Shown here: in pieces, positions 1 to 12,909 of the stretch
Position numbering within the stretch: position 1 is the stretch's first letter
How the letters are laid out: every line of letters starts with the position of its first letter
Assembly (NCBI GenBank): GCA_038736825.1
Contig: JAVYME010000032.1
Span: 1-12,909 of the forward strand
Source of the DNA: Candidatus Iainarchaeum sp.
GTDB lineage: Archaea > Iainarchaeota > Iainarchaeia > Iainarchaeales > DTGL01
Reading direction: 5' to 3'
Length of the DNA: 12,909 nucleotides
The notes under the pieces: model-generated
Databases searched by the model: none
What the model was told of the DNA's origin: nothing
Seen by the model: the letters and a program-made list of their open reading frames with translations, nothing else
Program-made: the position numbers and the translations under genes

Positions 1-549
1 GGCACTGGTGATGATGGTTGCGGTGGAACCTTGAATTGCGGAGATTGCCCGACAGGCCAAAAATGCAATATTGGAACCCACAAATGCGAACCAGAAAGTG
101 TGCCCCCTACAGGGACTTTTACTTTGCTGTTTTATTTTGACGAAATAAAACGTGAAGGTGCAACTATTAGCGATTACGATAATGCCTTGAGATGTGCTTC
201 TTGGTTTGCTGGAAAGGATTTAAGCACTTTGGAAGCCAAACCACAACATGAAGCGGTTTACAAGAATTTAAACCAGTTTTTTGAATTGAGAGAAGGTTCA
301 TTGACAGGAACAAAGCTTTCCTGCTCTGTTTCTGGTGACTATCTAGACTTTAAAGATGCTGAAGGCACTCAACCCTATTATGTAATATCATGCCCTGGCG
401 TGAAGTTCAATCAATCCTATGCCTTCATTTTCAAGTATAAGAAAGCCGATGGCAAAACTTACATGATGGCTTTCAAGATGAATGTTGACGGACAAGGTTA
501 TTTGAAGCCAACAGGCGAGGTTTTGGCAAGGGACAAAGAGGTGGAATGA
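1..549 (+). CDS. extracellular Cys-motif protein, C-terminal part (5' end lies outside the window)
   Basis: Frame 1 is open from base 1, with no stop before the TTG at 31 that the ORF track uses; the stop is TGA 547-549. The window starts inside a CGGTLNCGDCPTGQKCNIGTHKC cassette of the CGxCPxGxxCxxGxxC type also seen in the next gene. The rest is a ~140 aa Cys-poor domain I cannot assign to a family. Confidence 0.6.
   Translation, partial: GTGDDGCGGTLNCGDCPTGQKCNIGTHKCEPESVPPTGTFTLLFYFDEIKREGATISDYDNALRCASWFAGKDLSTLEAKPQHEAVYKNLNQFFELREGSLTGTKLSCSVSGDYLDFKDAEGTQPYYVISCPGVKFNQSYAFIFKYKKADGKTYMMAFKMNVDGQGYLKPTGEVLARDKEVE
538..544 (+). promoter_or_regulatory. Shine-Dalgarno site (GAGGTGG) serving the TTG start at 551
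   Basis: GAGGTGG lies 6 nt upstream of TTG 551 and overlaps the end of the upstream CDS. No in-frame ATG precedes the signal peptide. Confidence 0.5.
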
Positions 550-550
550 A

Positions 551-2734
551 TTGTTTTCATCCAAGCTGGCAGCCAAAGCCATTATTTTTTCATTGTTCAC
601 AGTACTGTTTTTTGCAACAGTTGCATCTCAAAATCCAGGGCCTCAATTGACAGGTGGAGGTCTTTCATCTGAACAAGTTCCACCTTTTCCTTCTGATGGC
701 GCTGTTGGTTCAAGGTCTTGCGGTTCAATTAAACATGGCAAATGCGGTGCAAACAACATGTATTGCAATGATGGCTCTCTTACAGAAAACTGCAATTTGT
801 GTCCTCCATGTCAAAGCGGCTTTCACTGCAATGAACAAGGACATTGTGAAGCTGATATTTCACCAATGTGTGATCCTGAAACCGAAACAGAGGTTTTGGG
901 GCCGGAAGGCAAATCAATGTGTGTTCCAATTGGCGAGAGAACAGGTGATTGCTCTAAGTGTATTCCCTCGATTCAAAGCCTTGATTATGGTGGTGGAACC
1001 CTCACTCAGGGAAAAACAGTCAATTTAACGCTTGGATTGGGAGACGAAAGCTGCACAGCCTCCAAGGCAGTATTGATTGTTTCAACAAGAAAACAAATAC
1101 TTAATTTCAACACCTACTGGCATGTTTTCAATTATCCAGTAAAAAACGAATTTGCAAGTGTGAAAGCTGCATTTGACTCAATTTTTCGTTCTGAAGGCGA
1201 AGTTGATCCAAACAAAAGCACAAGGGATTTTTCAAGTGAAGTCTTTTTGTTCTACCAGTTCTGGAATTTTACAGTAGATGCACAGGTAAAAGACAACCCA
1301 TCAAATTTGCAGGATTTTTCTTTGCCTTTTACAAGCGAACAACTTGATCCGCCTTTCAAAGAAAAAATGGACTGGCTTGCGGATAGGAATAAGGATTATG
1401 AAGCACTAATACCAAGGCTTAATGTTGCATCTATCCCAAAGAGAGGATTTTTTGAAGCCACTAGAGAGGGAACAGATGACAAGTTCATTGAGGGCATGAA
1501 TTTCAAGTTTGCAGTCAAATACAATTGTGATGGAAGATGGAAATTCAGTGATTTCCAGTCTGTGCCTTTTACAGATGCTGGAGCAGTTGTGAAAACATGC
1601 ACAGATGGAACCCCTTACGGGGAATGCTATAAGGGCAGCGATCCAGCAAAAATCGGCACTTTTTGCAATCAAGGCACAATTGAGGATTGCACTTCTCACA
1701 CACAATGCTGCCCTTCAGGCACAACCTGCCAGTCAGGCAAATGTGTTGCAAGCTCAAAAAACTGCACTTATGAAGGCACTGCAATTCCAGTAAACACTTG
1801 TGTTTACAAAATAACAAGCAATCAATCCCACAAACCAATATTTTGTGATGCAAGCGCTTCTTTGGTTGCAAAATGCAGTGGTGCCAATGGCTCTGCATCA
1901 GAATGCGGTTGTCCGCCAGAAATGAACTGCCAAGCAGATGGAACCTGCAAGACAGCAGTGACTGGCCCTACAGGCCCAGGACCACAAAGAACCCCAGGCA
2001 ATCCACCGGTTGAAATCCCGCCATTTCAAGAAGGCGGCGGAACAAGCATTACGGGCGGCGGTCTTGCAGACAACGCTTGTTATATAGTTGTGCAGGCAGA
2101 ATTCAATGGCACAACGTATGATTCTTCCAAGACGGTTACTGTTGATTCTTCTTCAATTGATTCAATTTCTGTAAAGGGAAAGTTTTCCTTGAGCCAAGAG
2201 GGCTGTGCAATAGAAGCCGGCGCACAATACGGTTTCTGGGATAATTCAAGCTTTTTGGGTTCAAGAAAGGGCGGTGGAACAATCACTGCAGAGCAGGCAA
2301 CCCAAATGAGTAACAAGCAAACAGTGGAAATTCCAGGCATTGTTCTTGCCGGAATTAAAGGCTTTAATGGTTCAAAGTTTTTTGGAATCACTGGAAAAGT
2401 GAAACCAAAGGGGGCAACGCAGTTCTCTCCCAAAAACTCTGCAACAATTGCCTTCCAGTTTGGTTCCGGTGGCACAACCACTCCGCCTGGCGAAAACAAG
2501 TGCTCTGATGGAACAATAAAAAACAATTGCTCTGCAACAAAGCCAAAGTATTGTAATGAGTCGTTGGAGTTTGTTGATAATTGCCGGGAATGCGGTTGCC
2601 CTGCGAACAGCGAGTGCCAGGCTGACGGTTCTTGCAAGGAAATAGTGCCTCTTGCTGGCTGTGATCCCTGCCAGAGCATTGCGGGCTGCCTTGCATGCAT
2701 TGACAAGGCAATGGCAGAACAAACCCTGAAATGA
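551..2734 (+). CDS. large secreted Cys-rich multidomain surface protein with C-terminal 4-Cys tail
   Basis: 727-aa ORF. The TTG start lies 1 nt after the upstream stop and has an SD. N-terminal signal peptide: MFSSKLAAKAIIFSLFTVLFFATVASQ. Four cysteine cassettes lie at 719-847, 1598-1744, 1763-1948 and 2501-2635; the clearest is KCSDGTIKNNCSATKPKYCNESLEFVDNCRECGCPANSECQADGSCK. There are many N-x-S/T sequons and G/T/P-rich linkers. The extreme C-terminus is GCDPCQSIAGCLACIDKAMAEQTLK. Confidence 0.8.
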   Translation: MFSSKLAAKAIIFSLFTVLFFATVASQNPGPQLTGGGLSSEQVPPFPSDGAVGSRSCGSIKHGKCGANNMYCNDGSLTENCNLCPPCQSGFHCNEQGHCEADISPMCDPETETEVLGPEGKSMCVPIGERTGDCSKCIPSIQSLDYGGGTLTQGKTVNLTLGLGDESCTASKAVLIVSTRKQILNFNTYWHVFNYPVKNEFASVKAAFDSIFRSEGEVDPNKSTRDFSSEVFLFYQFWNFTVDAQVKDNPSNLQDFSLPFTSEQLDPPFKEKMDWLADRNKDYEALIPRLNVASIPKRGFFEATREGTDDKFIEGMNFKFAVKYNCDGRWKFSDFQSVPFTDAGAVVKTCTDGTPYGECYKGSDPAKIGTFCNQGTIEDCTSHTQCCPSGTTCQSGKCVASSKNCTYEGTAIPVNTCVYKITSNQSHKPIFCDASASLVAKCSGANGSASECGCPPEMNCQADGTCKTAVTGPTGPGPQRTPGNPPVEIPPFQEGGGTSITGGGLADNACYIVVQAEFNGTTYDSSKTVTVDSSSIDSISVKGKFSLSQEGCAIEAGAQYGFWDNSSFLGSRKGGGTITAEQATQMSNKQTVEIPGIVLAGIKGFNGSKFFGITGKVKPKGATQFSPKNSATIAFQFGSGGTTTPPGENKCSDGTIKNNCSATKPKYCNESLEFVDNCRECGCPANSECQADGSCKEIVPLAGCDPCQSIAGCLACIDKAMAEQTLK

Positions 2735-2756: not shown

Positions 2757-3989
2757 ATGAAAAAAAAGTTTTTGGTTTTAGTTTTTTTGTTTTTTTTCCT
2801 TGACTGTTTTGCCTTCACCATAAATTCAAGGGTTGCTGACACAAGCCAGGAAATGAGGCGCGATCTCACAGAATACGCGGCAGGAGTTGCAAACACCTCT
2901 AGCCCTACAACTGCTTTCATTAAATTGCAGGAAACCGCTTTTTCCGTGAATGTTTCAGGCTTAAAGGACTGGCATGGAGAATACACTGCAGTTGCATTCT
3001 TGTACGGGCCAAGATTGATTTCAAAAGAGGGCACTATTACAGCGGAAAAGCCTTCAATAAAACTTAGGTTTTATTGGAAGAAAGGCAGTGAAATCCATGA
3101 ACTGGATTGCGAGCCAAGGCCTACGTTGAGCCTTAAAACTGTTGGGCAAGAGCAAAGGTGTGATTTGAAGGATGGCGGTTTTGCAAGGGATGGCATAATT
3201 GTTTACAGGATTGACAAAATTAGTGGTCCCGATTATGTTGAAAAGACAAGGATTGGCTGGTGGGTTTTCAAGCTTTACAGTTATTATTCCATAAAATCCG
3301 GTGCTGATCCAGCAGTGACAATAGATTACAGTTTAAAGTTTAGGACTGACACTGGCACTGGTTCTGGTGGCACTTTCACTGAGTGGGTTTCAACAGAAGC
3401 ACAACTGCGAGAAATAAGTTCTGGAGCAACCACTGGAACTGGGCAAAAGCCATTGATTGGCGCTGATGCCTGCAAGCCTTTAATTGGCAAGATTTATTAT
3501 GCTGGTGCGGAAACAGTGGATCCAAAAAGCTTTCATTTAGCGAATTTTGGAGACATTTTTTCGGTTATGGTGAGAGCCGGAGTTGACTGCCAAATAAAGG
3601 ATTTTTCTCTGGGATTGTGGAAAACCAGCACTATAAGCGGGCAGCCTGAAATAAAAATAGGCTTTCTTTTGGATGAAATTACAACCTTAAACCAGCAAGG
3701 CTCTTTTTGGAAAAATGTCATGCTCAACCAGGCAGCATATCCTGCAAAAATGTATTTGGCTGCAAGGCTTGTGAATGCAGAGGGAAGAGAGTTCTTTTCA
3801 GCTCCAGTTGAAATGACTTTTCCGTCTGTAAGTAATGGCACTGGAACCGGCACTGGACCTGGTACTGGGCCTGGAACTGGCACCGGCACTACCACTCCAC
3901 CTGTTCCATTAAAGGGTTGTGATCCCTGCCAGAGTGTTGTGGGTTGCATTGCCTGTCTTGACAGTGCAATGGCTGGAGCTCTAAAATAG
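2757..3989 (+). CDS. secreted protein of unknown family with the same C-terminal 4-Cys tail
   Basis: 410-aa ORF with an ATG start 22 nt after the upstream stop. Signal peptide: MKKKFLVLVFLFFFLDCFAFT. The body is largely beta-strand-like sequence with two Cys pairs. It is followed by a Gly/Thr/Pro linker and the tail GCDPCQSVVGCIACLDSAMAGALK. A hairpin terminator lies downstream. Confidence 0.8.
   Translation: MKKKFLVLVFLFFFLDCFAFTINSRVADTSQEMRRDLTEYAAGVANTSSPTTAFIKLQETAFSVNVSGLKDWHGEYTAVAFLYGPRLISKEGTITAEKPSIKLRFYWKKGSEIHELDCEPRPTLSLKTVGQEQRCDLKDGGFARDGIIVYRIDKISGPDYVEKTRIGWWVFKLYSYYSIKSGADPAVTIDYSLKFRTDTGTGSGGTFTEWVSTEAQLREISSGATTGTGQKPLIGADACKPLIGKIYYAGAETVDPKSFHLANFGDIFSVMVRAGVDCQIKDFSLGLWKTSTISGQPEIKIGFLLDEITTLNQQGSFWKNVMLNQAAYPAKMYLAARLVNAEGREFFSAPVEMTFPSVSNGTGTGTGPGTGPGTGTGTTTPPVPLKGCDPCQSVVGCIACLDSAMAGALK
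3837..3902 (+). other. low-complexity Gly/Thr/Pro linker (GTGTGTGPGTGPGTGTGTTTPP) inside the CDS
   Basis: Direct translation. Synonymous codons are mixed (ggc/gga/ggt/ggg, act/acc), so this is a protein-level linker and not a slippery DNA microsatellite. Confidence 0.8.
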
Positions 3990-4016
3990 GCATGGAATAA
4001 ATGTTAAAAAAAGAAT

Positions 4017-4042
4017 AAGAGCCGCATTTTTTTGCGGCTTTT
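4017..4042. terminator. bidirectional hairpin terminator between the convergent units
   Basis: AAGAGCCGCA (4017-4026) pairs with TGCGGCTTTT (4033-4042). That gives a 10-bp stem with one G-U pair and a 6-nt T loop. It is followed by T7 on the + strand (4045-4051) and by T7 on the - strand (complement of 4006-4012). It sits between the stop at 3989 (+) and the stop at 4064 (-). Confidence 0.6.
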
Positions 4043-4063
4043 AATTTTTTTGTCTTGTTTTTT

Positions 4064-6301
4064 TTATTTTTTGCTTTTCTTTGAATTGGTTGTTTTTTCT
4101 GCACTGCTTTTTGTTTCGCCTTTGCCTTCAGGCTGCTTGTATGCTTGATAGGTGAGGATTACAATGATTAAGGCTATTAGTCCAAGGAAGAAGAGTATTG
4201 CAAGGTTTGCCAGGCGGTTTCCGCCAAGGGTTGCGAGCCCTGCTTGTTCCTGCTTGTTTTGGTCTGAAATGGTTTCTGTTGGAATCGGTGTTTGGGTTTC
4301 TTCTGGTTTTATTTCTTCCATTGTTGCTTCTTCTTTCGCTAAATCCAGCAAGAGGGTTTTCTTTATCACGCCTTTGTCTGTGTTTATGGTTACCTGCATT
4401 GAAATGTTTTTGTCTTCAATGCTTTTGCCGAGCGAGATTGTGGCAGTAATGGTTTTTTCCTCGTTTACATCCAATTCAAAGGCTTCTGTGTCGAATTTGG
4501 CTGTATAGCCTTCGCCTTTTATTCCGGTTACTGTGAGCTTGCAATTGCCTGTGTTTTTGAGTTTGATTTTTGCTTTTACTGTTTTTTCTGTTTCAAGGAT
4601 TTCCTGCTCTATTTCTGATTCTGCTGAGACATCTATTTGTTCCAATCCAATTGTTTTCACTTTCACTGTAATTTTTGACTTGTCACTGTAATCTCTTGCT
4701 TTTATTTCAAGCAATGCCTCGTATTGTCCTTCTGTTATGTTTACTGGTGGAGAGAGGAATGCATAGAATTCCTTGGTTTCTCCTGCTTTGAGTGTAATTT
4801 CTGATGGCTCTATTTTGAGCCAGTTGATGCCTGTTGCCTTGATTGAAACTGTTTGCTCCATTGTGCCAGTGTTTTTTACTGTGGAGGTAATGGCTTTGCC
4901 TTGCGGGCAAACAAACGCTCCAGCGCTCATTTCAATTGTTTTTTCAAGGCCTTTTTTTGAAACTTCCAGTGAATAGCAGTCGTTGAGGTTGAAAGAGAAT
5001 TCTTTTGCGTACTTGAAATAGTTGGAGTCTATTTCCAGCAAAAAGGATTTTTGGCCTGTTTTTTCGCCTGCAAGGTTGAAGGTTACTGTTATTTTTTTCT
5101 TTTCCGCTGGCCTTAATTCAAAGGTTTCCGGTGTTACTGTGGCTTTTATTCCTGTAATGCTTGCTCTTGCAATTATTGCGTTTTTTGTCGTGTTTTCTGC
5201 TTCAAACTCGTATGAGAGCGTGTCTTCAATGCATGCGCTTTCAATGCCGGAAACTTTTGTTATTGCAAGGTTAAAGCAGTCTTTTATTGTTGCTTTGAAT
5301 TCTTGAACTGTTTCTTTTCCGTATGTTGGCGAGAAGGCTTTTATTGTGAAAGGGTATTCTTTTTCCTCTGCATTGCTTGTGTGAAAGTAAAGCTTTATGT
5401 CTTTTGATTCGTTTGGTTCCAGCACCAGGGCTTTTTCTTTTAATTCAATCCATTCTGGTGCTTCAAGGCTTAATTGAAGGGTGTCTTTTGCCCTTCCAGT
5501 GTTTTTTATTGTTATTGCAATTTGTTCTTCGCGGTCGTTGCAGGCCTGGATTTTTTTCTGTGAATCTGTTCCTATTTGTATTGCCTGCTTGTCTTTTATT
5601 TCAAGCGAGAAATCTGTGGAAGTGGAAAAATCTGTGCCTTTTATTTTTGCTGTGATTTTTCCAGTGTATGTTTTGAGTTCTGCATTGCATGGAGCTTCTA
5701 TTTTGAGCTGGGCGGCTCTTTCAGCGCCCTTGTCTAAAAGGAATTCTTGCGGCAATGCTATTGAAAGCCATTCCGGCGGCAAGCCCTCTATTTTTGCTTG
5801 CACTGTTTCCATTGTAATGCTTTTGTTGGCGATTTTTATTTCAAAGAGCGCTGGCTCGCATTGTCCTGCTTCCCTGTTTTTTGGTTCAACTGAAACTGCA
5901 AGGGTTCTGCATTCTGGCAGTGAGAGAGTAATGTTTTGGGTTTTTTCCCCTTTTTTGGAGGAATATTTTAATCCAATCACGTAAGTGCCGGGTTTTGCAT
6001 AGCAACAAGGAGTGAAGAAAGCGTAAAGTTTTTTTGTTTCGCTTGCTTCAAGAGAGAACACGAGAGGGTTTTTTGCAATTTCTTGGCCGTTAATGTTCAC
6101 CCAGTCAGCGCTTTCACCTATTGCGGTGAGCGAGTACTCTATTGTTTCAGGCCAGTTGTTTTTGAACTCGTATTCTGTTAAAACTGACTCGCAGCATTTT
6201 GCCTGCAATTGGAAAGGCCCTGAAACAAAATCGGCTTTTGCGGTTATTCCAATCATTATGAGCAAGAGCCCTAAAATCGTGTATTTGTTGAATGCGTTCA
6301 T
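4064..6301 (-). CDS. membrane-anchored surface protein with tandem Ig-like (CARDB/NEW3-like) repeats
   Basis: 745-aa ORF with an ATG start and the SD AGGAGGT 7 nt upstream. Signal peptide: MNAFNKYTILGLLLIMIGITAKA. There are about 6-7 repeats of ~95-105 aa, each with a Cys near its start and strand-like patterns such as xIKNTGxxxxTV...GINWLxIEP...LxxGExKEFYAFL. The C-terminal TM helix is LANLAILFFLGLIALIIVILTY, followed by a Lys/Ser-rich tail. Confidence 0.85.
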   Translation of the reverse strand: MNAFNKYTILGLLLIMIGITAKADFVSGPFQLQAKCCESVLTEYEFKNNWPETIEYSLTAIGESADWVNINGQEIAKNPLVFSLEASETKKLYAFFTPCCYAKPGTYVIGLKYSSKKGEKTQNITLSLPECRTLAVSVEPKNREAGQCEPALFEIKIANKSITMETVQAKIEGLPPEWLSIALPQEFLLDKGAERAAQLKIEAPCNAELKTYTGKITAKIKGTDFSTSTDFSLEIKDKQAIQIGTDSQKKIQACNDREEQIAITIKNTGRAKDTLQLSLEAPEWIELKEKALVLEPNESKDIKLYFHTSNAEEKEYPFTIKAFSPTYGKETVQEFKATIKDCFNLAITKVSGIESACIEDTLSYEFEAENTTKNAIIARASITGIKATVTPETFELRPAEKKKITVTFNLAGEKTGQKSFLLEIDSNYFKYAKEFSFNLNDCYSLEVSKKGLEKTIEMSAGAFVCPQGKAITSTVKNTGTMEQTVSIKATGINWLKIEPSEITLKAGETKEFYAFLSPPVNITEGQYEALLEIKARDYSDKSKITVKVKTIGLEQIDVSAESEIEQEILETEKTVKAKIKLKNTGNCKLTVTGIKGEGYTAKFDTEAFELDVNEEKTITATISLGKSIEDKNISMQVTINTDKGVIKKTLLLDLAKEEATMEEIKPEETQTPIPTETISDQNKQEQAGLATLGGNRLANLAILFFLGLIALIIVILTYQAYKQPEGKGETKSSAEKTTNSKKSKK

Positions 6302-6306
6302 TTTTT

Positions 6307-9024
6307 TTACCTCCTGTGCCAGACCGGCTTTGAATGGTTTGTGTCGCTCTCAATGAACCCCTTGAGAGCAATCATTACTATAACTATTATCAGTAAAATA
6401 ATTAACCCTATGCCTAGTGGTTTTCCAAGGGCTGCCAGGGCTGAAAGCGGCCAAAAGCCTTGAGTTGCTTCACTGCTTTTGCCTTCGCTTTCTGCCGGCA
6501 CTGGTTGTTGCGGTGAAACAACAGCTATTGTTATGTTTTTTGAGATTTTTCTGCCATCAAATTCAACTGAAAGCGTTCCATAATAGTTTTCTGGCGCAAT
6601 TTCTTCAGATGCCCACGCATTGAATTCAAATGCTGCCACTTCTTTTGCTTCCAAGTCAACTATTGCGTTTTGAATGCTTGTTCCTTGCGGCATGGACCAA
6701 TTTATTTTTATTCCTGAAATTTTTTCACTGGAACGGTTTGCAAGAGCAACGCTTACCTTTTTGGTTTCTCCCGGGAAAATGATTATTGTTGAAGGATATG
6801 CGGCAATTTCAATTTCTGCTTGCACTTTTTCCCTTGCTTTTACAACACTAAAGTAAATTCTTTTGCTGAAGGTTTCACTGCCTTTCACCAAAACATCAAA
6901 CCAGTAAGTGCCCTCTTTTAAGTCCATTGGAGCGTCCACGTTTATGAACACTTCCCTGCCCTTGCCGGGAGCAAGAGTGAAGCTCTTTTCTGAAAGCGTT
7001 ATTTTTGCCTTTGTGCTATTGCTTATTTCTATGGAATAGCTTTCATTGTAATCGCCCTGGTTTTCAATCAAGAGAGAGAAAACCGCGTTAGAGCACTGTT
7101 CTATTGTAGTGTTCCTGTCCTTTACAGAGAAAACGCTTTTCCTGCGCTTTTCAACATCAAAGCACGCTGTCTTGTATTCGCGGTGCTTTGCAGTCCAAGC
7201 ATAAAGTTTCACGTAATGCTTTCCTGTTGCCTCGTCCAGTCTTGCGCTTGCATTTAACCTTAATGTTTTGGTTTCGTTTGGGTTCAAGTCAACAGAGCCC
7301 TGCACTTCTGTCGGAATGTCCGCTATTGTTTGCAGGTTCACTGTCAGGTTGTTGGAAGTGTTGTTTTTTACTGTAAAGGAAATGTTTTTGTCCTTGCCTT
7401 TTTCAAGGGAAACGCAAGTGCCTGAAAGCGAGAGCGTAAAGGATTGAGTGTCAGGCTCTTCACAGTCCTTTACAGTGAAATAAGCCTTGGTTTGAGCGTA
7501 TTCTTGGTCTGTTCTGGCAGAAACGTTCACATAGTATGAGCCAAGGCTTGTGCCAGGGTACACGTATGTTTTCAATGGCACATATTTTTCAGAGCGCGCG
7601 TCAACTTCAATTGTGCTTTCCTCAAAGTATGCTAGGAATTCTGTGCTTGAAGCCTCAAGCTCCACTTCTTTTATTTCGCTTGAATTGTTTCTTACTAAAA
7701 TGCTGAGAGTGCCTGTTTCGCCCCTGCAAAGCGCTTTGGTTGTGCTTGAAATGTAAAGGCAAGAGCCTGAAGTGCAAGAACCACAAGTTGTACAGGATTC
7801 AACTTTAATGCTTATTGAAGCGCTTTCCTTGTTGCCTCCGCTTTGCGCTTCAAGTTTTGCAGTATAGTTTCCGCTTGGAGCGTCAATTGTTTGTATTGAA
7901 AGCGAAACCCAAGTGCTTTCTCCAGGGTTAAGGCAAACATAGTTTGTTGAGGCTGTTGCATCAATATAGCTGGAATACTCTCTCCCGTAAAGGTTAAGGC
8001 AATAATAATTGCATGAATTGTTTTCAATTTTCACCCTGATGTTTCTGGCATCATTTCTTTGCATGCGGATTGAATTGTATTCTGGGTAAAGGCGAACGCT
8101 GAAACCACAACCACTGGAAGAAGAACCGATTTTTACAGTGTCAAAAGAGAAATCACTGTAATTTTGTCCGTCAAAAGCCCTCACTGTGCACTGCCATTCA
8201 TCGCCGTATTCAGTGAAAGAATTGCTTATGGTTGTTGTATTGTTTTGCGTGGAATAACTTCTAAAAGTGGAACCATTTCTTTTCCAAGTGTAATGGTATT
8301 CTATTGAATCATTGTCTGGGTCTGTGGAATGCGCATAACATACAAGGTCATCTGAGTTCACAGGCGAAGAAGGGGAAATGTAAACGTTTGGCGTGCTTGG
8401 CGGCCTGTTCTGGGTTGAACCAATGCAAAACCCGTTGAGGCAGCCGTTAATGCATGCCTCTTCATTGGACCAAGAGCAGTCCGCGTTCTGGTATGCGCGA
8501 GTGCAGCAATCCTTGCACTTCCAGCCAGGAGTGCATTGCTGTCCTGAAGAAATTGTTATTTCGTAGTATCCATAGTTTGAATAGGTTTTTTGATCGTATG
8601 CTCTTACTTTGCACATCCAGGTTTCTCCAGGGGAAGTGTGGGTTGCCTGCAATACATTGGTTTGAGAGCTTGAAATTCTAGTGGAATAGTATTCGCTGTT
8701 CCTATACCACTTGTATTCGTATTCTATTGGGTCGTTGTCAGGGTCTGTGGAATAAGCGCGGCACACTAAGTCATTGTTTGTTGTTGCCGGGTTTGGGGTG
8801 ATGCTTACCTCTGGAATTGTGGGGGCACTGTTTGGTTTTGGCGTGCAGGTTCCATTAATGCACCCATAAGGACAGTATTCTGTTTGAAGCCAGTTGCAAT
8901 TGCAATCTCTGTATGCGCGATGGAATGCGTCCTTGCAAAACCAGCCCATCATGCAATCAGCAAAAACCGGCATTGAAACTGCCAGCAACAAAAATAAAAC
9001 CATTAAAGCGTTTGTTTTTTTCAT
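6307..9024 (-). CDS. giant membrane-anchored surface protein: two N-terminal Cys-module + DxDxD Ig-like units, then CARDB-like repeats and a TM anchor
   Basis: The ORF track starts this ORF at TTG 9057. I prefer ATG 9024 (MKKTNALMVLFLLLAVSMPVFA, a signal peptide) because GGGGGG lies 9 nt upstream of it. A tandem ~140-aa unit is present twice (8110-8955). It is followed by ~550 aa of Ig-like repeats rich in N-x-S/T sequons and by the C-terminal TM LGIGLIILLIIVIVMIAL. Confidence 0.85.
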   Translation of the reverse strand: MKKTNALMVLFLLLAVSMPVFADCMMGWFCKDAFHRAYRDCNCNWLQTEYCPYGCINGTCTPKPNSAPTIPEVSITPNPATTNNDLVCRAYSTDPDNDPIEYEYKWYRNSEYYSTRISSSQTNVLQATHTSPGETWMCKVRAYDQKTYSNYGYYEITISSGQQCTPGWKCKDCCTRAYQNADCSWSNEEACINGCLNGFCIGSTQNRPPSTPNVYISPSSPVNSDDLVCYAHSTDPDNDSIEYHYTWKRNGSTFRSYSTQNNTTTISNSFTEYGDEWQCTVRAFDGQNYSDFSFDTVKIGSSSSGCGFSVRLYPEYNSIRMQRNDARNIRVKIENNSCNYYCLNLYGREYSSYIDATASTNYVCLNPGESTWVSLSIQTIDAPSGNYTAKLEAQSGGNKESASISIKVESCTTCGSCTSGSCLYISSTTKALCRGETGTLSILVRNNSSEIKEVELEASSTEFLAYFEESTIEVDARSEKYVPLKTYVYPGTSLGSYYVNVSARTDQEYAQTKAYFTVKDCEEPDTQSFTLSLSGTCVSLEKGKDKNISFTVKNNTSNNLTVNLQTIADIPTEVQGSVDLNPNETKTLRLNASARLDEATGKHYVKLYAWTAKHREYKTACFDVEKRRKSVFSVKDRNTTIEQCSNAVFSLLIENQGDYNESYSIEISNSTKAKITLSEKSFTLAPGKGREVFINVDAPMDLKEGTYWFDVLVKGSETFSKRIYFSVVKAREKVQAEIEIAAYPSTIIIFPGETKKVSVALANRSSEKISGIKINWSMPQGTSIQNAIVDLEAKEVAAFEFNAWASEEIAPENYYGTLSVEFDGRKISKNITIAVVSPQQPVPAESEGKSSEATQGFWPLSALAALGKPLGIGLIILLIIVIVMIALKGFIESDTNHSKPVWHRR
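6309..6315 (-). promoter_or_regulatory. Shine-Dalgarno site (AGGAGGT) for the 6301 start
   Basis: On the - strand the sequence reads AGGAGGTaaaaaaaATG. The site overlaps the last codons and stop of the upstream gene, which implies translational coupling. Confidence 0.6.
8110..8955 (-). repeat. protein-level tandem duplication (2 x ~140 aa) at the mature N-terminus
   Basis: Unit 1 is 8536-8955 and unit 2 is 8110-8535. Both contain GW(F/K)CKD...RAY...C...(E/A)(Y/A)C.(Y/N)GC.NG.C, then P.(P/S)TP.V.I.P..P....DLVC.A.STDPDND.IEY.Y.W.RN........T......G(E/D).W.C.VRA(Y/F)D... The copies have diverged at the DNA level. Confidence 0.75.
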
Positions 9025-9033
9025 TTTTTTTCG

Positions 9034-9039
9034 CCCCCC
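9034..9039 (-). promoter_or_regulatory. Shine-Dalgarno-like G6 for the 9024 ATG
   Basis: The - strand reads GGGGGGcgaaaaaaaATG. Confidence 0.5.
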
Positions 9040-9067
9040 TTTTTTTCTAGCTGTCAAGCGCTTTTCC

Positions 9068-9538
9068 TCATTTTATTGTTTTGCATCTCCCTGACGCGGA
9101 ATCGCATCCGTAAACGCAATTGATTTCTTCAACTATTTTTCCAGTGTTAAGGTTGATTTTAACGCTTTTTGTGTTGCGGTGGAAAAAACTGCCCTCGCAT
9201 TTCCATTTAAAATTGCTTCCAGAAAGGCATTTTCCTGAAACCCTGTCACAACCATAAAAGCATTCTGTTTTTTCTGTTTTGCCTGTTAAAAGGTCTTTTT
9301 TCACGCTATACCATTTAGTGGAAAAAATTCCAAGAACCTTGTAATAGCCTTTCTGGCAAGAGAACTGGAATCTTGGAACCATTGAAATGCTGTAATCCCT
9401 TTCATGCCAACAACTTGTGCAAGCAGGGCTTGCTGTGGACTGCCCTCCTTTTCGGTAATCTGAGAGAGAGCCTGCAAAAGCGAAAGGCATTCCTGAAAGA
9501 ATTGAAAAAAACAATATTGCAATAAACAATTTTTTCAT
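9068..9538 (-). CDS. small secreted protein with two W-x-C...C-x-YGC...G-x-C modules
   Basis: 156-aa ORF with an ATG start and GGTG 8 nt upstream. Signal peptide: MKKLFIAILFFSILSGMPFAFA. The two modules are FSCQKGYYKV...TECFYGCDRVSGKC and KWKCEGSFFHRN...INCVYGCDSASGRC. No TM anchor. Confidence 0.8.
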   Translation of the reverse strand: MKKLFIAILFFSILSGMPFAFAGSLSDYRKGGQSTASPACTSCWHERDYSISMVPRFQFSCQKGYYKVLGIFSTKWYSVKKDLLTGKTEKTECFYGCDRVSGKCLSGSNFKWKCEGSFFHRNTKSVKINLNTGKIVEEINCVYGCDSASGRCKTIK

Positions 9539-9546
9539 TTTTTTTT

Positions 9547-9550
9547 CACC
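9547..9550 (-). promoter_or_regulatory. Shine-Dalgarno-like GGTG for the 9538 ATG
   Basis: The - strand reads TAAGGTGaaaaaaaaATG, immediately after the upstream stop. Confidence 0.45.
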
Positions 9551-10798
9551 TTATTTCAGCTTACAATAGTTTCCGCTTGAAAGGCGCGCACAATAATATC
9601 CTTGAGGGCAATCACTGTTGTAAGTGCACTCTTTTCTGCCCGGATTGCATGAACCATTGGTGCAGCCATTGTCACAGTATTCTGCATAACCCCATATTTT
9701 GCTGCCATAAACATCAACTGGCACTTTCCAAGAACCACTGCAAACCCATTTTGAGCTTGGAGAGTAAAGACTGCCATAATTGCTTGAAACCACTGGCGGC
9801 ACCACTGTGGGTTTTGTGGTTGCACGGTATTGTGAAATTGTTGTTGGCTTGTGCTGGCTTGCTGGAGTTGATTCAGGTTGAATGGTTTTTGCAGGGGTTG
9901 TTTTGACTTCAAAGCCTGTGGATTTGCCAACGCATTGCCCGTTTTTGCAGGTTTGACAGCTTCCACAAGTCTGGTACAAAAAACTGGCTTCAGAGCAATC
10001 CTTGTAAGTGAATTTAATGAATACTTTGCCTGGCTGTGCTGGATCGCAAAATGTTTCGCTTTTTGGAGTGCAGGTTTTCACTGGCGGTTTTGGCGCTGGA
10101 TTGCAGTTTCCACTAGCGCATCCGTATTGGCAGTATTCTTTTTGTATTATGTTTCCGCATGACAGGTCTATTTTTATTCTGTAGTTTCCTTGGCATTGCC
10201 ATTGGTATTGTGGTTGTGGTTTTGGCTTGCATTGTGTTGTGTTTGGGTCGCATCCGTATTGGCAGTATTCTTTTTGTATTATGTTTCCGCATGACAGGTC
10301 TATTTTTATTCTGTAGTTTCCTTGGCATTGCCATTGGTATTGTGGGGCTGGCGCTGGATTGCATTTTCCTGTTGCTTGATTGCAACCATAAGCGCAGTTT
10401 TCCGGGAATGCGTGTTCATAGCCCCATTTGAAAGAGGCTGGAAGTTGGGCTTTTTCTATTCTATAGCTTGTGTTTCCCCTGCACTCGTAAGAGGTTTTCC
10501 AGTTTATGCTTTCAAAACGGCCATTGTAACAGTAAACATAGTCTGTTTGCGGCTTGTATTGGGCAATGGATGTGTTTTTTGTGCAATTGCTGAAATAGTC
10601 TATTTTGTACAGGGTTCTGCATTCGTCAGTCCAATTGGTGGTGCAGTCTCCGCACTTGTATTCTGTTTTCACCAGGTATGGAGTGTAGCAGGAGGGGTTG
10701 CCTGTGCAAGTGCAGTTTGGAATTGTTTGAAGTCCAGCGGCTGCCAAGGGTAAAAGCAAAAGGAATGCTATTGCAATTATTGTTTTTGTTTTAACCAT
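9551..10798 (-). CDS. secreted Cys-rich modular protein (about 9% Cys), paralog of 11484-12359
   Basis: The ORF track start is GTG 10807. I prefer ATG 10798 (MVKTKTIIAIAFLLLLPLAAAG, a signal peptide), which has AGGAG 10 nt upstream and overlaps the upstream stop (ATGgtTAA). Architecture in order: a YLVKTEYKCGDC...CAYGCNQATGKC domain; two identical QYQWQCQGNYRIKIDLSCGNIIQKEYCQYGC modules; a CGSCQTCKNGQC cassette; a Thr/Pro linker; then a final WVCSGSW...EYCDNGCTNGSC module. Confidence 0.8.
   Translation of the reverse strand: MVKTKTIIAIAFLLLLPLAAAGLQTIPNCTCTGNPSCYTPYLVKTEYKCGDCTTNWTDECRTLYKIDYFSNCTKNTSIAQYKPQTDYVYCYNGRFESINWKTSYECRGNTSYRIEKAQLPASFKWGYEHAFPENCAYGCNQATGKCNPAPAPQYQWQCQGNYRIKIDLSCGNIIQKEYCQYGCDPNTTQCKPKPQPQYQWQCQGNYRIKIDLSCGNIIQKEYCQYGCASGNCNPAPKPPVKTCTPKSETFCDPAQPGKVFIKFTYKDCSEASFLYQTCGSCQTCKNGQCVGKSTGFEVKTTPAKTIQPESTPASQHKPTTISQYRATTKPTVVPPVVSSNYGSLYSPSSKWVCSGSWKVPVDVYGSKIWGYAEYCDNGCTNGSCNPGRKECTYNSDCPQGYYCARLSSGNYCKLK
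10117..10345 (-). repeat. perfect 97-bp direct repeat (10117-10213 and 10249-10345), period 132 bp, in frame inside the CDS
   Basis: A base-by-base comparison shows the two 97-bp stretches are identical. They are separated by a divergent 35-bp linker. The 132-bp period equals 44 codons. The flanks share GGCGCTGGATTGCA (starting near 10091 and near 10350). Confidence 0.95.
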
Positions 10799-11363
10799 AA
10801 AATTCACGCTCCTGCCTGCTTTTGATTGTTATTATTTTTGCGATTATGGCGATTGATAGCAGAATTATTATTGCGATGAGGAATATTAGTGTTAAGCCTT
10901 CAATGCCGCCCAGTGCTGCCAGTGGTGTTACACTGTTTTTTTGTTCTTCTTTTTGGGTTTCATTTGGCTGTGTTTCCTGTATTGGAAAGTATTTTGCGGA
11001 GTGCACTCTGATTTCTTTCAGCACTGTTGTTTCTCCAAGTGAAACCATTAGGCTGGAATTGTAAATTGTGCCTTCTGTTTCGTCAGATGGAAAGATTGTG
11101 AGGTAAAAGGTTGCGCTTTCCATTGGCTTGATTTTTTCTGGAATGCTGGAGATTGTGTAGTGCAAGCCGGCTGGGCCAATGAAAAGGGCTTTTAGTTCTT
11201 TTTCTTGTAGGGAGGTGTTTTGGACTGTTACCGGCATTGTCATTTCCCTTACGAGGTATACATCGTTCCAAGTTTTTATGTGGCTTTCATCGAAAGCGCT
11301 TGCACTGGAAAAAAGCAAGAGCAGTATTCCTGTTGCAAGCGCAATGCACAAATTTTTTTTCAA
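10791..11363 (-). CDS. small membrane-anchored protein with one Ig-like domain
   Basis: The N-terminal region has no ATG. Candidate TTG starts are at 11369 (ORF track) and 11363. GGGGG (complement of 11371-11375) lies 7 nt from the 11363 TTG and only 1 nt from the 11369 TTG, so I prefer 11363 ((M)KKNLCIALATGILLLLFSSASA, a signal peptide). The protein has one ~110-aa beta-rich domain, a Glu/Gln-rich spacer, PLAALGG, and the TM LTLIFLIAIIILLSIAIIAKIITI. Confidence 0.7.
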   Translation of the reverse strand: MKKNLCIALATGILLLLFSSASAFDESHIKTWNDVYLVREMTMPVTVQNTSLQEKELKALFIGPAGLHYTISSIPEKIKPMESATFYLTIFPSDETEGTIYNSSLMVSLGETTVLKEIRVHSAKYFPIQETQPNETQKEEQKNSVTPLAALGGIEGLTLIFLIAIIILLSIAIIAKIITIKSRQEREFYG

Positions 11364-11370
11364 AACCAAG

Positions 11371-11375
11371 CCCCC
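11371..11375 (-). promoter_or_regulatory. Shine-Dalgarno-like G5 for the 11363 TTG
   Basis: The - strand reads GGGGGcttggttTTGaaaaaaaat. Confidence 0.45.
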
Positions 11376-11421
11376 TTTACATTAACTTATTAACTTTGAT
11401 ACATTAATTTATGTCGCCCCT

Positions 11422-11438
11422 TATATAAAAACCTTTCT
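11422..11438 (-). promoter_or_regulatory. archaeal BRE/TATA promoter (AGAAAGG-TTTTTATATA) for 11363 and downstream genes
   Basis: The - strand reads aGAAAGGTTTTTATATA, about 55-60 nt upstream of the start codon. A 14-mer is identical to the promoter at 12424-12437. A conserved ATTAATG lies ~22-26 nt downstream of the TATA centre, a plausible initiator. Confidence 0.6.
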
Positions 11439-11483
11439 ATTTTTCCTTTTTTTCAAAATTTCGTTTTTTTGGTTGTTGCTGTT

Positions 11484-12359
11484 TTAATTGCATTGCCCTG
11501 TTGCCCTATTGCAGCCATTATAGCAGAAAGTCTGCTTTACAACAGTGCTCTTGTCCTGCAGTGTTTTAACGCTGTAATTGCCAATGCAACTGTAAAAATA
11601 TTGCTGGTATGCTGTGGTTGTTGTCGGTGTTTCAGGTGCTCTGTATGCTTGAATTCCAGCTGGCTCCCTGTAAACTGGCTGTGGCGTGTATTCTGGGGTT
11701 TTTTCCTGCATGCACCTGAATCCAACTGGATCGCAAACATAGCCACTGCCACAGGTTTCTATTGTTATAACGCAGCCATCCGAATATGCCTTTACAACCC
11801 TGTTGCCCCTGCACTCCAGCTTGTATTCAGGGTTTGCTGGCCTTGTCCATGCTGGATTGCATTTTCCAGTGCTCCAATTGCAGCTGTACTGGCAATAGTC
11901 AATGCTTGTGGTTTGCATCATTGTCCAACCCCAAGGGGAAAAGAATTTTCTGTATGCAACTGAATAGCCATTGTTTTTGCATTCATTCCATGTTATCCAG
12001 GCAAAGCTTTCAAAGTGACCGTTTATGCAGTAAAAGTATCCTGAAATTTTTTCTGTGGTTGTTTTTGATGTGCCGTCACTGTAATAGCTGGTTGTGTAAA
12101 GGGTTTGGCATTCAGGGGTTAATCCCCTAGAGCAGTCACCGCATTTTTTTTCTGTCCTTACAATGTAAGGGCTTCCATAAGAGTATGGCTGGGTGTAACC
12201 ATAATATGAAGTGGTGGTTTGCGGTCTGTAGGATTGAACAGAGGTTGTTTGAGTTGGAGTTGCCCTGTATGCTGTAGTTGTACCGGATAATGCGAATGCT
12301 GCCGGTAATGCCAAAATGAAAATTAATCCAATTATTGAAAGAATTTTTTTTCCAGTCAT
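11484..12359 (-). CDS. secreted Cys-rich modular protein, paralog of 9551-10798
   Basis: 291-aa ORF with an ATG start and GGGGGG 8 nt upstream. Signal peptide: MTGKKILSIIGLIFILALPAAFA. YIVRTEKKCGDC...ECQTLY...YCINGHFES..W....EC...CQYSCNWSTGKCNPA aligns with the N-terminal domain of 9551-10798. Two further modules follow, the last being YSCIGNYSVKT...FCYNGCNRATGQC. There are Thr/Tyr/Pro linkers and no TM anchor. Confidence 0.8.
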   Translation of the reverse strand: MTGKKILSIIGLIFILALPAAFALSGTTTAYRATPTQTTSVQSYRPQTTTSYYGYTQPYSYGSPYIVRTEKKCGDCSRGLTPECQTLYTTSYYSDGTSKTTTEKISGYFYCINGHFESFAWITWNECKNNGYSVAYRKFFSPWGWTMMQTTSIDYCQYSCNWSTGKCNPAWTRPANPEYKLECRGNRVVKAYSDGCVITIETCGSGYVCDPVGFRCMQEKTPEYTPQPVYREPAGIQAYRAPETPTTTTAYQQYFYSCIGNYSVKTLQDKSTVVKQTFCYNGCNRATGQCN

Positions 12360-12552: not shown

Positions 12553-12909
12553 TTAACCTTTTTCAAGTGCTTTCTTGAGAAGGTCTGACTTTGTGATTAT
12601 GCCGGCAATTTTTCCACGCTCTGCCACAAGAACCGCCTGTTCGTGATTCAAAATTCCGGCAAGAACAGGGAACACTGTATGGCTGTTCACAACAGGCAAA
12701 GGCTCACCCATTATATCTGAAGCCTTTAAGAGATTGAACTGGCTGCCCTTTTCCCTAATCGCGGAAAGAGCCCCGCTTTCGGTTATTATGCCGACACACT
12801 GTCCCCTTTTTACCACTGGAATCTGCGAAAAACCGTTTTTTTCCATTATCTCAACAGCCTTTCTGGCGCTCTCATTAAAGCTTATTGATTTGACTTTCCT
12901 GCTCATGAT
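12553..12909 (-). CDS. CBS-domain pair (Bateman module) protein, 5' end probably outside the window
   Basis: There are two CBS motifs: ...VKSISFNESARKAVEIMEKNGFSQIPVVKRGQCVGIITESGALSAI and ASDIMGEPLPVVNSHTVFPVLAGILNHEQAVLVAERGKIAGIITKSDLLKKA. The frame stays open to the window edge. The ATG at 12906 sits in the position of the usual (D)IM-x-x-x-V motif of CBS1, so the true start is likely upstream. Confidence 0.85.
   Translation of the reverse strand: MMSRKVKSISFNESARKAVEIMEKNGFSQIPVVKRGQCVGIITESGALSAIREKGSQFNLLKASDIMGEPLPVVNSHTVFPVLAGILNHEQAVLVAERGKIAGIITKSDLLKKALEKG

Follow-up and report, generated by a model that had tools for sequence, protein, structure and literature searches.

A short cysteine-rich tail, found at the extreme C-terminus of two secreted proteins, is conserved and occurs exclusively in two neighbouring gene families of a narrow Iainarchaeia/Diapherotrites clade. 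The tail was analysed in a stretch of 12,909 bp (the window), which is a complete contig of a metagenome-assembled genome (MAG) labelled 'Candidatus Diapherotrites archaeon'. The two carriers, P1 and P2, are encoded consecutively on one strand (Table 1), and in each of them the tail occupies the last 25 residues or so and contains four cysteines (Cys4). P1 and P2 alike begin with a segment resembling a signal peptide. When the two proteins were compared by BLASTP, the tail alone aligned (18 of 24 residues identical, E = 5e-10), while the remainder gave E > 1; both open reading frames (ORFs) were as a first-pass annotation of the window had described them, sharing only their termini. At the nucleotide level the tails form a direct repeat of 59 nt (2657–2715 against 3915–3973, 81% identity), which includes the identical core of 17 nt previously reported at 2660–2676 and 3918–3934. 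A degenerate pattern for the motif had exactly two matches in the window, compared with none in 200 shuffled sequences. Both tails had been correctly placed at the C-termini, although their starts had been set one codon late; that of P1 begins with the I codon at 2642–2644, and that of P2 with the P codon at 3900–3902.

The distribution of the tail was established through searches of both DNA and protein. A degenerate DNA pattern was scanned over 185,579 species genomes, and a stricter pattern over a metagenome collection. Two matches among the species genomes were genuine, one in an uncultured archaeon (L001) and the other in a Ca. Iainarchaeum MAG (L008); the other 9 of 11 were chance matches in GC-rich bacterial DNA, being out of frame or interrupted by stop codons. 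In the metagenomes, L012 and L014 were genuine, each having two in-frame, C-terminal copies, while the other two of the four loci (L013 and L015) were chance matches, as was the single match among viral contigs, which lay antisense to an SSB gene. An exhaustive hmmsearch of 1.84 billion representative proteins, using a profile of the two tails, produced 15 matches at E <= 0.001. Eight of these were real, namely P1 and P2 themselves and six further proteins, each orthologous to one of the two; the remaining seven were translated repeat DNA of CRISPR (clustered regularly interspaced short palindromic repeat) or REP (repetitive extragenic palindromic) type, and were internal, multi-copy and partial. 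Contig look-ups added L016, L017, L018, L019 and L021. In total, eight loci yielded 14 tails, every one located at the extreme C-terminus and on an orthologue of P1 or P2; no other protein family among those searched exhaustively carried it. P1 was directly followed by P2 in all eight loci (both genes were complete in six, while in two the contig ends just past the start of P2), usually with a spacing of 9–22 nt, extending to 66 nt in L012. Finally, a hidden Markov model (HMM) of all 14 tails was applied to six-frame translations of nine loci (the window, L001, L008, L012, L014 and L016–L019), where it matched the C-termini of P1 and P2 only (E = 1e-14 to 1e-19; next best, 0.18).

These results bear on two suggestions made at first pass. 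The tail had been proposed as a tag that many signal-peptide proteins might carry, but it was confined to orthologues of two adjacent genes; on the other hand, its presence in eight loci means that it is not a one-off local duplication. Because eight related loci have the tail on these two proteins only, it looks more like a private docking or pairing module than like a general sorting signal. Two word-indexed protein searches contributed little. An alignment of 40 aa across the tails found no match, which was uninformative, since the window's own proteins were missed as well although the database holds them; the full P2 sequence and a six-sequence P2 profile recovered the query and P0014 only, this method being too insensitive for orthologues without a tail.

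All 14 tails shared the core C-x-P-C-x-[ST]-[IV]-x-G-C-[LI]-A-C-[LI]-D, usually preceded by Gly, and the spacing C-x2-C-x6-C-x2-C was without exception. Nine columns were invariant or nearly so: the four Cys, P, G, A, D and a Ser that is replaced by Thr in one copy. Between 8 and 11 residues follow the core, placing the last Cys 9–12 residues from the stop codon, and within this segment hydrophobic residues were retained at position +3 ([ML]) and near the end ([LMF]). The final residue was often a single Lys or Arg, and otherwise D, E, Q or S. No tail contained a hydrophobic run of transmembrane (TM) length (the longest uncharged run was 9–15 residues, and the maximum Kyte-Doolittle mean over 19 residues was 0.45–1.46) or a C-terminal basic cluster. 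Full-length P1 and P2 matched nothing in Pfam or NCBIfam at E <= 0.1, and the isolated tails nothing at E <= 10, save two noise matches at E = 0.18 (AhpD-core) and 0.38; a sequence search of the PDB with the isolated tails was also empty, even at E <= 10. It was thus borne out that no described C-terminal domain model in these three libraries fits the tail.

The segment before the tail was always of low complexity, being rich in PT, GT or EP, and differed in length and composition from one orthologue to another. Since this variable linker separates the tail from the body, the tail is more than the final helix of the domain before it, a possibility that had been raised against it. P2 consists of the signal peptide, a pair of beta-sandwich domains containing four invariant Cys, a GT-rich linker and the tail. 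In P1, the signal peptide is followed by an N-terminal domain (the LDPPFK..W region), Cys cassettes, a beta domain of approximately 130 aa, a last Cys cassette and the tail; the position of this last CSDGT cassette, directly before the tail, agreed with the first description. However, the P1 orthologues in L008 and L018 lack the beta domain and all of the cassettes while retaining the tail, so that conservation of the feature does not extend to the arrangement of domain plus linker. Of that earlier claim, the low-complexity linker was found in every case, but the domain was not. Nor could the domains preceding the linker (approximately 120–130 aa) be treated as alike in both proteins. The Cys pair said to be spaced C-x41-43-C was C-x41-C in P1 but C-x38-C in P2, and hhalign returned a probability of 30% (E = 5.7e-4), such that a shared homologous domain was not established. 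Separately, the cassette itself, about 45 aa long (C.DGT....C....KP.YC.....L....C..CGCP....C..DGSC) and without a Pfam or NCBIfam model, recurs in P1 and in P0, the family encoded upstream of P1. Copies were located at 2501–2635 and elsewhere within the P1 gene of the window, in the P0 remnant at 31–549, at 2940–4376 in L008 and at 14–2548 in L017, and the cassette seems to move as a module between these envelope proteins.

Orthologous bodies of P1 and P2 were 38–63% identical. The relationship between the two tails of a locus was examined by comparing the 17 codons of the core in P1 and P2. The numbers of identical, synonymous and non-synonymous codons were 7, 5 and 5 for the window pair, 6, 6 and 5 for L008, 4, 9 and 4 for L014, 11, 4 and 2 for L016, 11, 2 and 4 for L018, and 16, 1 and 0 for L012. 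In most lineages, this pattern indicates that selection keeps the tail peptide while the DNA diverges. L012 was different; its tails (1270–1347 and 3205–3282) have 16 of 17 codons identical while the adjoining linkers differ, and this was interpreted as a recent gene conversion tract of about 55 nt, limited to the tail. Identity between the tails of P1 and P2 was also elevated in two clades, at 0.88 in clade B (L012/L019) and 0.75 in clade D (L016), compared with values of 0.71 or less to tails of the same family in other clades. The two tails therefore evolve partly in concert, as one would expect of tails that bind symmetrically to one another or have a partner in common.

It is conceivable that the tail is a passive structural cap that binds no partner, or a neutral leftover of local duplication that gene conversion has propagated. 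Its narrow distribution, together with the near identity in DNA of the L012 pair, would fit such an origin. However, all 14 gene copies keep the tail even though their bodies are only about 40% identical across clades, and nine columns have stayed nearly invariant while synonymous sites diverged and the adjoining linkers varied freely; this explanation was considered very unlikely. Recent local duplication as the whole story was ruled out by the synonymous divergence and by conservation across clades. Instead, the eight loci in which it occurs and the numerous synonymous differences that separate its copies support the original view of the tail as a conserved and selected C-terminal module.

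Structural prediction gave a partial view of the tail. AlphaFold2, applied to P2 with a three-sequence alignment, produced a model with a mean pLDDT (predicted local distance difference test) of 66, in which the body, predicted with moderate confidence, formed two beta-sandwich domains, the linker was disordered, and the tail (pLDDT 35–47) was helical from residue 394 and not packed against the body. A prediction for the tail alone from eight sequences, which the first-pass annotation had proposed, yielded a loop containing the first C-x-P-C, followed by a helix to the end that includes the second C-x-x-C, but with a pLDDT of 61.5 only. A picture of loop plus helix stapled by Cys is therefore of low confidence. 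Foldseek found weak, generic matches for the P2 body to immunoglobulin (Ig)/FN3-like folds (E > 0.006) and, with the low-confidence model of the tail, no match in the PDB. The P2 bodies have four further invariant Cys, and the mature proteins have even numbers of Cys (44 in P1, 8 in P2); both features are compatible with extracellular disulfides.

Given these observations, the favoured reading, to which a probability of roughly 0.45 was assigned, is that the tail is a mini-domain stapled by disulfides or metal on a flexible tether, which would dock P1 and P2 to one another or to a common envelope partner encoded nearby. The fold, the cysteine chemistry and the docking function were all inferred. 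The two carriers would be co-transcribed, Sec-secreted proteins of beta-sandwich type in the cell envelope of Iainarchaeia, each ending in a tether rich in Pro, Thr, Gly or Glu, which is probably glycosylated, and an autonomous mini-domain of about 25 residues. The four invariant Cys would staple the short C-x-P-C loop onto the N-terminal turns of the C-terminal helix that bears the second C-x-x-C, either through two disulfides or through one bound metal ion, to give a rigid knob that bears a conserved hydrophobic stripe. This knob could hold P1 and P2, which have no membrane anchors of their own, together or to one shared partner from the cluster; candidates are the two TM-anchored proteins with Ig-like repeats (4064–6301 and 6307–9057) or the small Cys-rich proteins, a possible link to which had been put forward at first pass.

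Several points weigh against such a docking module. Both models of the tail are of low confidence, as given above, and the hydrophobic moment of the tail helix is modest (~0.25). In clade A (the window, L008, L018 and L017), the endings of P1 type (..K.MAEQTLK) and P2 type (..SAMAGxxK) stay distinct, and the two tails are therefore not fully equivalent. All members of the families were reached through the tail, so that orthologues without one could escape, and the search for enzymes covered the loci of the cluster rather than complete genomes, so that an unlinked processing enzyme could escape also. An in-plane amphipathic membrane anchor was considered as another role for the helix, but is disfavoured by the same hydrophobic moment and by the lack of flanking basic residues.

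A tripartite C-terminal sorting signal comprises a signature motif, a hydrophobic segment of TM length and a basic cluster, usually of Arg (bioRxiv 10.1101/2023.06.07.544157). Because the tail has neither a TM helix nor a basic cluster, it is not a signal of this sortase type; no curated sorting-signal HMM matched it either, and the earlier statement that it is not one of the known tripartite tags held. The tail does resemble those tripartite signals that contain Cys, in that Sec-secreted surface proteins terminate in a short motif containing invariant Cys, preceded by a Thr/Ser/Pro-rich stretch that is probably glycosylated (bioRxiv 10.1101/2023.06.07.544157). It differs in having four Cys rather than one or two, in having, among the proteins and loci searched, two carriers per genome rather than many, in the absence from it of a TM helix, an Arg/Lys cluster and an HMM match, and in there being no CPBP or archaeosortase-type gene nearby.

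One alternative is that a dedicated, unlinked enzyme recognises the tail, cleaves it or modifies one of its Cys and so fixes P1 and P2 covalently to a lipid, glycan or envelope protein; this would be a TM-less analogue of sorting by sortase, archaeosortase or myxosortase. The location at the extreme C-terminus, at a near-fixed distance from the stop codon, would be explained, as would the invariant Cys, which recall the MYXO-, CGP-, JDVT- and Synerg-CTERM signals, and the Thr/Pro/Ser/Gly-rich stretch, which has a described counterpart ahead of the CGP-CTERM and archaeosortase signals (bioRxiv 10.1101/2023.06.07.544157). Besides the tail, no anchor is visible in P1 or P2, which is consistent with attachment of this kind. 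Yet a hydrophobic segment of TM length is absent, and so is a basic cluster (the last residue of several tails is D, E, S or Q), only two substrate families were found, no NCBIfam sorting-signal model matches, and no candidate enzyme was present in the four extended loci (the window, L016, L018 and L021). Within the conserved cluster of these loci there was no peptidase, transferase, oxidoreductase or sortase-like gene; a peptidase, thiol-disulfide oxidoreductase or sortase-like protein had been named at first pass as an enzyme that might co-occur with the tail. An enzyme signal was accordingly judged unlikely.

The four Cys might alternatively bind a metal (Zn, Fe, Cu or Ni) as a functional site, or act as a redox-active pair of CxxC motifs, and so serve surface metal capture or thiol-disulfide chemistry rather than docking. 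The pattern C-x2-C-x6-C-x2-C, with its second CxxC at the predicted start of a helix, resembles zinc sites of knuckle-plus-helix form, and C-x-P-C (CGPC in L017) is spelled like the active site of thioredoxin-like oxidoreductases. However, approximately 25 residues are far too few for a thioredoxin fold, which has about 100; the tail is preceded by a disordered linker and has no match to a thioredoxin family in Pfam or NCBIfam. More generally, a metal or redox site receives no support from the sequence searches at E <= 10 in Pfam, NCBIfam and PDB or from Foldseek with the low-confidence tail model, and it leaves unexplained both the two adjacent, otherwise unrelated carriers and the homogenisation of their tails; this was thought quite unlikely. 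In comparison with the Cys4 zinc sites of treble clefs and zinc ribbons, the tail likewise has two CxxC pairs, the second at a predicted helix start, but it is extracellular, has six residues between the pairs and a knuckle of C-x-P-C rather than C-P-x-C-G, and found no sequence match in the PDB, nor a fold match there with the low-confidence model.

Other systems provide analogies for a docking or pairing module. Dockerins are composed of duplicated, Ca-binding F-hand segments (~22 residues each), amount to some 60–70 aa and have no requirement for cysteine. As a functional analogy, and the nearest one in its logic, the tail would be comparable in being a small, autonomous C-terminal module behind a flexible Pro/Thr linker on different secreted proteins, and in docking non-covalently to a scaffold encoded nearby; it is unlike them in its length of 25 aa and its basis in Cys4, in that no cohesin-like partner was identified, and in that neither the tails nor full-length P1 and P2 matched the Pfam dockerin model (Dockerin_1). 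In apamin and in endothelin/sarafotoxin, a chain of about 20 residues has an N-terminal loop with two Cys joined by two disulfides to a C-terminal helix with another two. The predicted loop plus helix of the tail is compatible with such folds, but those are free peptides with C-x-C ... C-x3-C spacing and no homology to the tail, which terminates large proteins. In the zinc hook of Rad50, CxxC motifs of two chains share one metal ion to dimerise, and metal sharing of this kind is a possible model, by analogy, for the pairing of P1 and P2. The tail belongs to a familiar kind, that of C-terminal modules for surface attachment or docking, while this particular module is without a match in the libraries searched and is phylogenetically narrow.

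The DPANN archaea are uncultured, ultra-small and often dependent on a host, and to our knowledge almost nothing is known of how their envelopes are built or how they retain surface proteins that have no anchor. A compact, TM-less tail on exactly two co-expressed secreted proteins in a conserved envelope cluster offers a concrete and testable handle on this subject. If it is a docking tag, it would be a new type among prokaryotic C-terminal modules for surface attachment, and could serve as a small, engineered coupling tag. The reach of the finding is limited, since only a narrow clade and two protein families are concerned. A more specific proposal, considered unlikely, is that the tail is a minimal, TM-less assembly tag of DPANN envelopes: the Cys4 knobs of P1 and P2 would be joined mutually, or to the (C-x-x-C)n runs or unpaired Cys of the anchored Ig-repeat neighbours, through a shared metal ion or disulfide exchange (a 'zinc-hook/disulfide-hook'), thereby fixing a canopy without anchors to anchored stalk subunits.

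The remaining genes of the window form a cluster around P1 and P2, which was syntenic as a whole in the window, L016, L018 and L021. P0, P1 and P2 lie on one strand, and the opposite strand encodes two Ig-repeat TM proteins of ~740 aa and ~920 aa, two or three small Cys-rich proteins and a TM protein of ~190 aa. Its content is exclusively of envelope type, that is, Ig-repeat proteins with C-terminal TM anchors, Cys-rich secreted proteins and the ~190-aa TM protein. P0 is truncated in the window; the full-length orthologue has 478 aa and lies directly upstream of P1 both in L008 (2940–4376) and in L021. From a consensus scan of the sequence, the hairpin after P2 is the likely end of the P0-P1-P2 transcription unit.

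Table 1. Positions of the Cys4 tails, their carriers and the surrounding features in the window
Feature	Position	Strand	Remarks
P0, C-terminal part	31–549	+	First gene of co-directional P0-P1-P2; cut by contig start; secreted; without Cys4 tail
P1, 727 aa	551–2734	+	ORF; P0003 in public data
Last CSDGT...DGSC Cys cassette of P1	2501–2635	+	Directly before tail; missing in L008 and L018 orthologues
P1 tail, IVPLAGCDPCQSIAGCLACIDKAMAEQTLK	2642–2731	+	Core G-C-D-P-C...C-I-D at 2657–2704; 14-tail HMM E = 6e-18
P2, 410 aa, QXK06_05110	2757–3989	+	ORF; start 22 nt past P1 stop
P2 Gly/Thr/Pro low-complexity linker	3837–3899	+	TRF array at 3837–3890; disordered in AlphaFold, pLDDT < 50 for residues 360–387
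P2 tail, PVPLKGCDPCQSVVGCIACLDSAMAGALK	3900–3986	+	Core at 3915–3962; 14-tail HMM E = 9.5e-16
GC-rich hairpin, then T-runs on both strands	4016–4043		Between convergent P2 and 745-aa genes; consensus scan only
745-aa Ig-like-repeat envelope protein, C-terminal TM helix and basic tail	4064–6301	-	Syntenic in all loci; 11 invariant Cys
916-aa Ig-like-repeat envelope protein, C-terminal TM helix and basic tail	6307–9057	-	Syntenic; variable (C-x-x-C)n run at ~7759–7794
Four-gene block kept in cluster	9068–12359	-	Three small Cys-rich secreted proteins and one TM protein
Small Cys-rich secreted proteins (n = 3)	9068–9538, 9551–10807, 11484–12359	-	In four-gene block
192-aa protein with C-terminal TM helix	10791–11369	-	In four-gene block
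CBS-domain part of HTH-CBS (helix-turn-helix) regulator	12553–12906	-	Flanks cluster; cut by contig end

Both anchored Ig-repeat proteins have unusual arrangements of Cys. In the 916-aa protein, a C-x-x-C run (7759–7794, residues 422–433) lies between two Ig-like domains, and its length varies greatly among the orthologues in L016, L018 and L021, between 3 Cys (L016) and 13 Cys (L021, SCSSCSDCGTCGNCDSCTDCSGSCGSCSSC...); judged on its sequence, it is possibly a metal or disulfide docking site for Cys4 tails. The same protein has a direct repeat of 76 nt (8276–8351 and 8699–8774, 74% identity), corresponding to two 'TDPDND.IEY.Y.W' modules at its N-terminus, with a Cys-rich cassette before each. 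In the 745-aa protein, 11 Cys are invariant across five orthologues (the window, L001, L016, L018 and L021), including a vicinal PCC pair and a lone Cys ('NTGNC') in a distal Ig domain. Since 11 is an odd number, one or more of these conserved Cys may remain unpaired or bond to another chain.

A tandem duplication of 132 nt (10117–10380, 89–94% identity) was present in the 418-aa secreted protein at 9551–10807, doubling a Cys-rich module of 44 aa (PQYQWQCQGNYRIKIDLSCGNIIQKEYCQYGC); this looks like a recent expansion of the module. The longest ORF for this protein starts with GTG at 10807 and shares 17 nt (10791–10807) with the end of the 192-aa gene; the true start of the protein may be the downstream codon at 10798, as the earlier annotation had it. 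In the Ca. Iainarchaeum contig L021, the interval 3050–4315, some 5.7 kb upstream of P1 and outside the conserved cluster, encodes a flavoprotein resembling thioredoxin reductase (Pyr_redox_2) and a protein of 83 aa that has no match in Pfam. Finally, a regulator combining an XRE-type HTH (HTH_3 in L016 and L021) with CBS domains flanks the envelope cluster in the same position in the window (12553–12906, minus strand), in L016 (9447–10025) and in L021 (20258–20818), and may control it.

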